A stretch of 64,000 nt of DNA from an uncultured Clostridia bacterium (GTDB lineage: Bacteria > Bacillota > Clostridia > TANB77 > CAG-465): contig CALXBS010000003.1 of NCBI GenBank assembly GCA_944386605.1, forward strand, positions 3,264 to 67,263. Reading direction: 5' to 3'. Shown one piece after another: positions 36,001-39,000 of the stretch; within the stretch, counting starts at the first letter, position 1, and every line of letters begins with the position of its first letter. The position numbers were made by a program.

Positions 36001-39000
36001 ATTATCTAAAGAAGATGACAAAAAAGGAGAATCAGAAAGCATTAGCAACCAGCGTTCTATACTAACTCGTTTTTGTCAAGAAAATCATTTACACATTATA
36101 GCGGAATATATTGATGATGGAATTAGTGGAACCACCTTTCAAAGACCTTCTTTTCAAAAAATGTTAAAAGACATTGAAAACAACAAAATCAATATGGTAA
36201 TTACCAAAGACTTGTCTAGACTGGGACGTGATTATATCGGCACAGGGCATTTCTTAGAAAAATATTTTCCAGAAAAGCATGTGCGATATATTTCATTACT
36301 AGATGGAATTGATACAGGAATTGAAAGTATTTCTAATGATATTACACCCTTTAAATCCATACTAAATGATATGTATGCAAAAGATATTTCTAATAAAATT
36401 AAAAGTGTCAAACATAATAAACAAGAACTAGGACTTTTCATTGGACGAAAAGCTCCTTTTGGTTATCTTTTAAAAAAAGAATTTCCTAATAAATTATTTA
36501 TTGATACAGAAGCAAAACCTATTATTGAAAGGATTTTTCAAGAAGCCTGCAGTGGAAAATCTTGTCGAGCGATTGCAACCGATTTAACTCTAGATAATAT
36601 TCCTACCCCTTCTCAATATGCAATGGCACATGGGAACAAAGTTACAAAAGTAAGTTATGCTTGGACAGATTCACGTATTCGAGAAATCCTTTTAAATGAA
36701 GTCTACATTGGAAATATGGTACAAGGAAGAATGAAGAAAATCAATTATAAATCAAAACAAAATATTCGCCTTCCCAAAGAAGAATGGAAAATTATTCCAA
36801 ACACTCATGAAGCAATGATTGATCAAAAAACTTTTTTTAAAGCAAATGAAATGTTAGAATTAAGAAAAAAGACCCGAATTAAAAGTCATGATTATCTTTT
36901 AAAAGGATTTGTATATTGCCATGAATGTGGAAAAAAATTAAACTGTACTTCTAAAAAAGGTGTTTATTATTTTAGATGTAGCACTTATGTAACTTATACC
37001 AAACTTAGATACTGTTCTTCTCATTTTACCAAAATGGAATATGTAGAAAATAGTGTTCTTTCTAAATTAATAGAGATAATTACTAGCATAGATACGAAAG
37101 AAAAAATGATAGAAATAACCAAACAATTACTAAAAAAGAAACAAGAAAATAGAATACTTTCTTCTCCTTTAGAAGAATATCAGCAAAAGCTTTCTAGTTT
37201 GCTTTTAGAAATTGATACTATGTATCATGACAAATTACAACATATACTTTCACAAGAAGATTTTATAAGAATTTATAAACAAAAAGTAGTGGAAAAAAAG
37301 CTCCTTCAAGAGAAAATTAATCACCTACTTTCTCTTCCTTCTATCCCATCTGAGCATGAAAGCATAGAGGAGTTAATTCAAAAATTTTACTCTTCCTTTG
37401 TGATTTGTCGTGAAACTTTAGCAGATTTGATTCAAAGAATAGAAATTGATCAGGATAAAAACATTTATCTTTATTTAAAATTTAAACAATAATGAAAAGT
37501 GGTAGTAAGTAGTATTGCTAGCACTTTTATTGCAATTGCACATAAAATGTGATATATTACTACTACTTATTACTCTATCCAAAAATATAATTAATAAAGG
37601 AGGATTTCATATGGTTCATGAAGAAAAACTACAGGAAACTATGCGGTTTTATCTTTTAGCTACCCGTTTAAAATATAAAATCAGAAGCGGTTGGGATGAA
37701 AAGCACTGGAATGTGCAAAAAGAACGGTTAGAAAGTGTAGCAGAACATGTTTATGGTGCCCTCATTTTCTTAATGGGACTTCATTCTGAAATAAACTTAG
37801 ATGTAGATCTTTTTAAAGTACTGAAAATGCTGACACTTCATGAAATTGGTGAAGCTATTATTCCAGATTACACTCCATATGATAACATTACTCCAGAGGA
37901 AAAACAAGAAATAGAACACCAGGCAATGGAAGAAGTACTTGGAGATCTTGCTAGAAAAGAAGAATATTTCTCATTACTTTTAGAATTTGATGAACAAAAA
38001 ACCAAAGAAGCCATTTTAGCCTTCTATATTGATAAAATGGAAGCAGACATTCAATGCAAAGTATATCAAGATATGGGTTGCCACCATTCTTTTGATTCTT
38101 GGTATGAAGTTGATAAACCACTTTACAAAGGAGATGAACTCTTCTTAGCATTTTTAGAATATATTAAAAATCACTCTACCTTAATTTAAAAAGGATGAAA
38201 AATATGATTCTTTTTGCTATTCTCATTTCACTTATTATCCTAATATCCATACTTGCTATTGCACTTATTTATTCAGCAAAAACTGCTTTTTATCTACTTC
38301 TCTTAATTGCTTGCTTTGGAATTGCAAGCGAAGGCTTAATGAAACTGTGGAATTTAAGAAAATAACTTTTTACTAGGCAATACAACCTGTGTTGCCTAGT
38401 TTTCTTTTAAAAGTGTCATAAATATGTTCCGATACATAGGAACGTGATATCCCCAGCTCATCTGCAATTTGTTGTTGTGTTTTTTGCTTGTTTCCATCAA
38501 TTCCATATCTTAACTGCATAATATATTTTTCTCGTTTCGGTAATTTCGTGTTAATATATTCGATTACTTGTTTACTAATCACACTGTTATAAATCGTGTC
38601 GATTGCATCTTTTGTATTCGAATCTAATGTTTCTACTAACTCCATATCATTTCCATCTTTATCGGTTCCAATAATCGTACTAAGAGAAACTTCTGCTTTT
38701 TGCTTTTTAGAGCTTCTAATATACATTAATATTTCATTTTCTACACACTTACTGGCATAAGTAGAAATTTTGTAATTTTTATCTTGACTAAAACTATTAA
38801 TTGCTTTAATAAGCCCTATAGTTCCTATGGAAATCAAATCCTCTAATTCTTGTTCATTGGTTGTATACTTTCTAGCAATGTGTGCTACTAAGCGTAAATT
38901 ATGTTCAATTAATTTATCTTTTGCCTCTTTACTTCCTTCAAAATATCTTCTTAAATAATATTCTTCTTCTGTTTTACTAAGTGGTTCTGGAAAAAGATTG

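Follow-up and report, generated by a model that had tools for sequence, protein, structure and literature searches.

A predicted attP palindrome at the ends of a sigK-splitting element with its own large serine recombinase in an uncultured Clostridia bacterium

We analyzed a stretch of 64,000 nucleotides from the genome of an uncultured Clostridia bacterium (GenBank assembly GCA_944386605.1, contig CALXBS010000003.1; hereafter, the window) in which the sigK gene is split by an insert of 11,841 bp lying between two copies of a short core sequence. Joined across this core, the inner ends of the insert form a 44-bp imperfect palindrome. With a probability of about 0.85, in our estimate, this palindrome is the attP site, that is, the junction of the excised circle, of a skin-like mobile element that splits sigK and is driven by a large serine recombinase of its own. 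The observations behind this assignment are the sites themselves, their conservation among relatives, the crossover position and a gene that is intact once the two parts of sigK are joined. The general architecture, with a shared core, a symmetric attP, an asymmetric attB (the host site) and a small recombination directionality factor, is already documented for SprA of SPbeta, for GirC and for the skin elements, and the palindrome is an expected feature, not a surprising one. Less familiar are the fixed insertion site in the part of sigK that encodes region 4.2, the existence of minimal elements with only two genes, the occurrence of both orientations, the vanG cargo and the lack of phage genes.

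The joined ends and the interrupted gene

The 16-bp core GATACATAGGAACGTG occurs as an exact direct repeat that cannot be extended by a single base on either side, with the left copy where the sigK 3' part meets the element (26590-26605) and the right copy where the element meets the sigK 5' part (38431-38446); neither the core copies nor the element body (26606-38430) are assigned to a strand. When the right inner end (38413-38430) is followed by the core and then by the left inner end (26606-26615), the sequence reads GTGTCATAA-ATAT-GTTCC-GATACATA-GGAAC-GTGC-TTATGACAC, exactly as given in a preliminary description of this DNA. The predicted attP junction reads GTTCCGATACATAGGAACGTGCTTATGACAC, and that of attB, the host site reconstructed from the outer flanks, reads TTCTAGATACATAGGAACGTGATATCCCC. 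That description placed the dyad axis on a non-palindromic AC (26593-26594 on the left, 38434-38435 on the right), and complementarity around this dinucleotide indeed extends to 17 of 21 positions per side, comprising the 9-nt outer arms, the 5-nt inner arms, one of the four spacer positions and two of the three positions next to the centre. The original count of 14 matches among 18 arm positions was thus correct but slightly conservative, given that one spacer position pairs as well. The weaker symmetry that had been noticed in the host-side flanks is also borne out: by the same measure, the reconstructed attB reaches only 7/21, the left junction 6/21 and the right junction 11/21, against 17/21 for attP.

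A palindrome in AT-rich DNA might arise by chance, or might be a hairpin or terminator that has nothing to do with recombination. The window has a G+C content of 27%, the joined 44-mer would form a strong single-stranded fold (-21.8 kcal/mol, z = -7), and a scan for terminator-like structures on the minus strand flagged the 5-bp inner repeat of the right junction. With the centre fixed, the binomial probability of the observed symmetry is 2e-6 (for the base composition of the window, which gives a match probability of 0.30). Because of the low G+C content, the symmetry was also tested against random chimeric joins drawn from the window, with three kinds of centre and any of the 16 core positions allowed, and 10 of 100,000 such joins reached 17/21, that is, a chance of about 1e-4. 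Furthermore, the two halves of the palindrome lie 11.8 kb apart and would be joined only upon excision, and each half is retained separately at the element ends in relatives whose non-coding DNA is otherwise non-alignable. For RNA of the sigK strand that spans the right junction, the predicted fold is no more stable than that of shuffled sequence (z = 0.17); on this fold and on the terminator scan, the interpretation as an RNA hairpin or terminator was rejected. Taken as a whole, an origin of the palindrome by chance or as a structure unrelated to recombination appears extremely improbable.

The interrupted gene is sigK, and the insert accordingly is an element of the skin type. The 5' part of the gene (38436-39068, minus strand) covers codons 1 to approximately 213, encodes the Sigma70_r2 and Sigma70_r4 domains and is identical to a protein that is present on 15 contigs (P0122); in the integrated state, it reads on into the element as a 231-codon open reading frame (ORF) that ends at 38373. 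The 3' part (26535-26592, minus strand) encodes ..SRIETKVQNKIKRHIKYE, followed by a stop codon at 26537-26535. Joining the two parts yields a protein of 230 amino acids that ends in ..LGISRSYVSRIETKVQNKIKRHIKYE and scores 285 bits on the NCBIfam SigK model PRK05803, compared to a cut-off of 252, so that precise removal of the element would restore an intact sigK. The uninterrupted SigK homologues of related organisms (P0123 and P0124) end in ..SRSYVSRIETKVQNKLKKHIKYES, and because their ends are alike, the 17 residues encoded to the left of the element represent the true end of sigK. One uninterrupted homologue is located in the same gene neighbourhood, with Lactamase_B, DUF3006 and sigK (L094).

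Recognition motifs and the crossover in related elements

Recombinases that are 57-68% identical to the one in the window, along with a larger set at 39-48% identity, are common in assemblies from gut and rumen Clostridia. In 22 of the 80 genome loci that were fetched, the recombinase gene lies beside a 5' part of sigK that stops at residues 212-215, and look-ups of close homologues added five more such loci; in every one of them, sigK is broken at the same codons (..ISRSYV/SRIE.., with the slash marking the break). Both attP and attB could be rebuilt for 22 relatives that have the two ends inside the fetched DNA and sigK split at SRSYV/SRIE. The comparison thus includes 23 elements, of which nine (the window among them) form the closest group and 14 are more distant; the elements range in size from 1.8 to 11.8 kb.

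Half-site P, which occupies the element's right inner end (38409-38433, plus strand), contains a distal motif, GTGTCATAA (38413-38421), and a proximal motif, ATGTTCCGAT (38424-38433); its counterpart at the left inner end, P' (26595-26619, minus strand), reads ..GTGTCATAAGCACGTTCCTAT on the minus strand. All nine closest elements have a common two-part half-site, TTAGTCATAA-NN-AYGTTYYTAT, and the consensus of their 18 half-sites, read toward the centre, is tTaTTaGTCATAAnnAtGTTcctAT, that is, TTaGTCATAA-nn-AtGTTcctAT, which half-site P fits. The information content is high from -22 to -13 and from -10 to -1, drops at -12/-11 and fades past -25. A half-site accordingly spans about 22-25 bp and a complete attP about 46-52 bp, within the published range of 52 bp for SprA, 48 bp for Bxb1 and 39 bp for phiC31 (PMC5499854).

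The arms of the palindrome are retained in eight other elements, those with recombinases 57-68% identical to that of the window, and the 14 more distant elements possess other arms, with the distal motif TCGTTTACA.TA and the proximal motif CG.GGCG..AT, around the same centre. Arms that vary with the recombinase around a fixed centre point to recognition by the recombinase and are not predicted by either chance or an RNA hairpin. Symmetry follows the pattern expected of large serine recombinases, with attB less symmetric than attP, and unlike it beyond the shared core, in the tested elements (13-21 of 25 positions for attP and 6-11 of 25 for attB over the 23 elements). The palindrome thus shows that these ends are recognized by the recombinase and that integration occurred here. 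The preliminary description had taken the palindrome as the typical architecture of a large-serine-recombinase attP, and every feature of such a site that can be read from sequence is in place: the recombinase, the restored sigK, the conserved arms and the crossover dinucleotide. It had also taken the palindrome as support for site-specific excision; this holds for the recognition of the ends and for past integration but not for excision as such, given that only the integrated form was found.

On the sigK 3' side of attB (26569-26589; ATTGAGAC on the minus strand), the sequence GTYTCAA lies 4 bp nearer the centre than GTCATAA does in attP. A shifted distal motif in attB, of the kind included in the Listeria integrase model, was considered, but there is no counterpart on the sigK 5' side and the resemblance is too weak to be claimed.

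The comparison also bears on the position of the crossover, which the preliminary description had put at the AC. The predicted crossover dinucleotide, at the dyad centre of attP (38434-38435 on the right and 26593-26594 on the left), is AC on the plus strand and GT on the sigK strand. On the evidence of the window alone, the crossover could formally be at any dinucleotide within the 16-bp identity, and exchange might take place elsewhere in the core, for instance, in its GGAAC part, with the dyad centre not being the point of cleavage. The stretch shared by the two junctions differs, however, from element to element, and the intervals allowed across the relatives intersect only at GT. The identity between the junctions stops after GT in five elements (L014, L019, L034, L040 and L096) and begins at GT in three others (L043, L051 and L062). 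In L002, GT stands alone between mismatches on both sides; a crossover in the shared run upstream of it would give TAA in place of the Tyr codon, a stop in sigK, and GT is the only shared dinucleotide that restores the open sigK frame. Overall, the GT pair agrees between the two junctions in 23 of 23 elements, the positions on either side of it match in only 17, and no other pair of adjacent positions is invariant. A crossover away from the centre is therefore improbable, and the AC/GT at the dyad centre, which is non-palindromic and identical in the partner sites, is predicted as the point of exchange as strongly as comparison alone allows.

The elements come in two layouts. In the first, that of the window and most close relatives, the recombinase gene runs convergently toward the 5' part of sigK; in the second, that of L098 and most distant relatives, it is directed into the 3' part of sigK, which lies approximately 20-60 bp away. 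The recombinase of L098 is 66% identical to that of the window, and its att site (11602-11660) has the same GTCATAA arm in the opposite orientation to sigK compared with the window (38409-38446), so that the polarity of insertion has flipped within the close group. As a consequence of the two layouts, the central dinucleotide, read in the direction of the recombinase gene, is AC in one and GT in the other, which fits an asymmetric dinucleotide that alone sets the polarity in a nearly symmetric site. In four independent assemblies of a related organism (L090-L093), the contig ends 5 nt past the GT at the sigK break (...TATGTATCA). These ends look like a branch of the assembly graph at the att site and could reflect a mixture of occupied and empty sites.

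The recombinase, the small upstream gene and the cargo

The recombinase gene (35945-37492, plus strand) encodes a protein of 515 amino acids with matches to the Pfam families Resolvase (PF00239, 1e-21), Recombinase (PF07508, 1e-24) and Zn_ribbon_recom (PF13408, 3e-9). It is the sole recombinase gene in the insert and ends 939 bp from the right core. R19, S21, which we take to be the nucleophile, R92 and R95 are invariant among the 23 sequences of the recombinase alignment (A1). The closest solved catalytic domain is that of TnpX from Tn4451 (PDB 2mhc, E = 2e-27), with which the protein presumably has in common an N-terminal motif of the RLSxxD...SxSIxNQ type. TnpX both excises and inserts its element and is not known to need a directionality factor for this, and Tn4451-type ends carry GA dinucleotides; its choice of target is looser, in contrast to the single fixed sigK site of the family described here.

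By analogy with other large serine recombinases, the zinc-ribbon domain would bind the distal motif GTCATAA (13-19 positions from the centre) and the recombinase domain the proximal motif AYGTTYY (4-10 positions from the centre). At integration, the strands would be exchanged with a 2-nt stagger at the GT within TAT-GTA, the sigK codons for Tyr-Val in ..ISRSYVSRIE.. of region 4.2.

Directly upstream of the recombinase gene and overlapping its start by 23 nt, there is an ORF of 44 codons (35833-35967, plus strand). The same small ORF, of 36-46 codons and often overlapping the recombinase gene, is found in nine close relatives (L001-L004, L086, L096, L098, L100 and L102), with the motif LICIYDDTKEDxxxxLLxIYxxFxExEL, and ORFs of the same pattern occupy the same place in 13 distant relatives, with a shared core that aligns without gaps; over the close and distant sets, the size range is 36-69 codons. 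In the minimal elements L002 (2334 bp), L003 (2287 bp) and L004 (1802 bp), the small ORF and the recombinase gene are all that is encoded between the half-sites. The small proteins match no Pfam family and no PHROGs family (the latter searched with two of the sequences). A match to TTRAP was sub-threshold (E = 0.011, 16 bits compared to a cut-off of 27) and was not relied on.

Excision by large serine recombinases normally requires a small accessory protein (PMC5025042, PMC5499854, PMC5595907, PMC6957869). Because the small ORF is conserved beside the recombinase gene, and because its size and position resemble those of GirX and Skr, we propose that this protein of about 40 amino acids is a candidate recombination directionality factor.

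A motif of the CATAT(A/G) type is kept about 10 nt upstream of the ribosome-binding site of the small ORF (35800-35832), and likewise in the nine relatives. The motif looks like the CATA -10 element used with mother-cell sigma factors, and the DNA upstream of it overlaps the att arm in the minimal elements. Terminator-like hairpins at 35733-35770 and 38372-38410 flank the small ORF, the recombinase gene and the gene for an HD-domain protein (37611-38189), which would thus form a separate transcription unit; the second hairpin, on the plus strand and followed by a T run, closes this unit just upstream of half-site P.

The rest of the element is occupied largely by a complete vanG-type gene set (26850-33535) that consists of vanS (26850-27932, minus strand), vanR (27945-28634, minus strand), a VanW-like ORF (29092-29637), the vanG ligase gene (29630-30667; 560 bits on NF000091), vanXY (30651-31442) and vanT (31381-33535). 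It is followed by genes for a polysaccharide deacetylase (33579-34406, minus strand) and a family-2 glycosyltransferase (34438-35724). No paper connecting vanG with a sigK-intervening element was found. The content of the insert is not prophage-like, as it includes no recognisable phage gene; PHROGs was run on the recombinase (an integrase match), the HD-domain protein (weak matches) and the two small-ORF sequences. The window is identical to another contig (L081) over 21.5 kb except for 8 substitutions, all of which fall within 57 bp (31887-31943) in the part of vanT that encodes the membrane domain; the substitution at 31929 changes TAT to TAA and splits the vanT ORF in the window copy. Over the whole window, Rfam detected only two tRNAs, near 59.8 and 63.8 kb.

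Excision, known systems and biological meaning

If the element is active, excision would be carried out by the same enzyme in the sporulating mother cell, both this timing and the continued activity being what we infer, and it would probably be aided by the conserved protein of about 40 amino acids encoded just upstream of the recombinase gene. Such excision would rejoin sigK exactly and release a circle of 11.8 kb that bears the palindrome. Several results weigh against the assignment of the palindrome to an active element. A degenerate pattern covering attB, attP and both junctions had 0 matches in the JGI metagenomes and IMG/VR; all contigs with an identical recombinase or VanS contain the integrated form, and none has a circle junction from vanS to the HD gene; and a protein collection searched with the joined SigK yielded no full-length match above 89% identity. 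In addition, the role proposed for the small ORF is read from its position and size only, and the argument for the crossover assumes that all members of the family are functional and have one common register. A search of GenBank phages with the recombinase, aimed at an unintegrated attP, gave nothing above 40% identity.

The integrated form alone, in about ten independent assemblies, and the failure of the searches to detect an empty site or a circle would be compatible with a fixed, immobile remnant, in which the sites record a past integration and sigK stays split; the nonsense codon in vanT, a cargo gene, likewise indicates some decay of the window copy. However, the recombinase ORF, the small ORF, the half-sites, the 16-bp core and the short 3' fragment of sigK are all intact, and an unjoined sigK would be without most of the recognition helix of region 4.2. 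Assemblies that contain the integrated form only are weak evidence either way, because excision limited to the mother cell would leave little trace and would be nearly invisible in bulk assemblies anyway. We therefore regard a fixed remnant as unlikely, and the integrity of the recombinase, the small ORF, the half-sites and the 3' fragment of sigK appears to favour an active system.

Among the documented systems, SprA/SprB of SPbeta, which acts on spsM of Bacillus subtilis, resembles the present one in that its target, too, is a mother-cell sporulation gene interrupted through a large serine recombinase (PMC5499854). The attP of SprA measures 52 bp, with a core of 16 bp and symmetric arms of 25 bp, and, as in the window, attL and attR have a common 16-bp sequence, the attP of about 52 bp is highly symmetric around a central dinucleotide and attB has little symmetry (PMC5499854). 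A small directionality factor is required for the excision of SPbeta (PMC5499854), whereas here there is only a candidate for one. The two systems differ in the target gene, in the central dinucleotide (AA in SPbeta and GT/AC here) and in their unrelated arms; moreover, SPbeta is a full prophage, and the element here is without recognisable phage genes, with no phage recombinase above 40% identity to its own.

The skin element of Clostridioides difficile, with CD1231 and CD1234, is a sigK-splitting element in an organism of the Clostridium class and employs a single large serine recombinase, as is the case here (PMC5025042). Its att sites are imperfect inverted repeats around a shared motif of exchange, the excised circle bears attP, and CD1231 adjoins the sigK 3' part, which corresponds to the second layout of the present family (PMC5025042). 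CD1234, with a tagged product of approximately 15 kDa, is not adjacent to the recombinase gene, whereas the small ORF here encodes about 40 amino acids and overlaps the recombinase start; the cargo differs as well (PMC5025042). The likeness to this element is drawn from its published description. Elements that split sigK have also been reported in C. perfringens and C. tetani (PMC5553647).

Non-prophage elements are represented by gin of Bacillus cereus, with GirC and GirX, which splits another sporulation gene, gerE (PMC5595907). Its att site is an imperfect inverted repeat of 27 bp, with 9 bp of shared sequence and a central dinucleotide that has been predicted, and GirX is a directionality factor of 42 amino acids with no known motif (PMC5595907). 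The target gene differs from that in the window, and the likeness is again drawn from the published description, but in gene content the element described here is closest to this non-prophage class (PMC5595907). In the skin element of B. subtilis, with SpoIVCA and Skr, sigK is split as in the window (PMC6957869, PMC5025042), and the gene for Skr (64 amino acids) lies directly upstream of spoIVCA and overlaps it, the same arrangement as that of the ORF at 35833-35967 (PMC6957869). This element occupies another sigK site than the C. difficile element, in the opposite orientation, and exchange takes place within a 5-bp repeat beside 21-bp repeats (PMC6957869, PMC5025042).

The B. subtilis skin element is prophage-like and 48 kb in size, and the elements compared here go down to 1.8 kb. 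Tentatively, and with somewhat more doubt than confidence, we suggest that they represent a large and hitherto undescribed lineage that splits sigK in Clostridia of the gut and rumen; its members would at the minimum consist of a protein of about 40 amino acids and a recombinase encoded between the half-sites, would always insert at the GT of the Tyr-Val codons of region 4.2 in either orientation, and would pick up cargo, here the vanG-type operon; the small protein would then be a new family of directionality factors.

The prediction of the att sites provides exact sequences for experimental testing, namely an attP of 46-52 bp, an attB in sigK and an AC/GT crossover, and the relatives turn a guess from a single sequence into a family-level model of the site with separable distal and proximal motifs. 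This model could help the mining of serine integrases as tools for genome engineering; the understanding of how these recombinases work is unchanged by the element described here. With regard to biology, the findings would extend the developmentally excised sigK elements to uncultured gut Clostridia and indicate that a resistance operon of the vanG type can be cargo of such an element. The operon would be inherited vertically through spores, and it might also move by recombinase-mediated insertion into any conserved sigK site.

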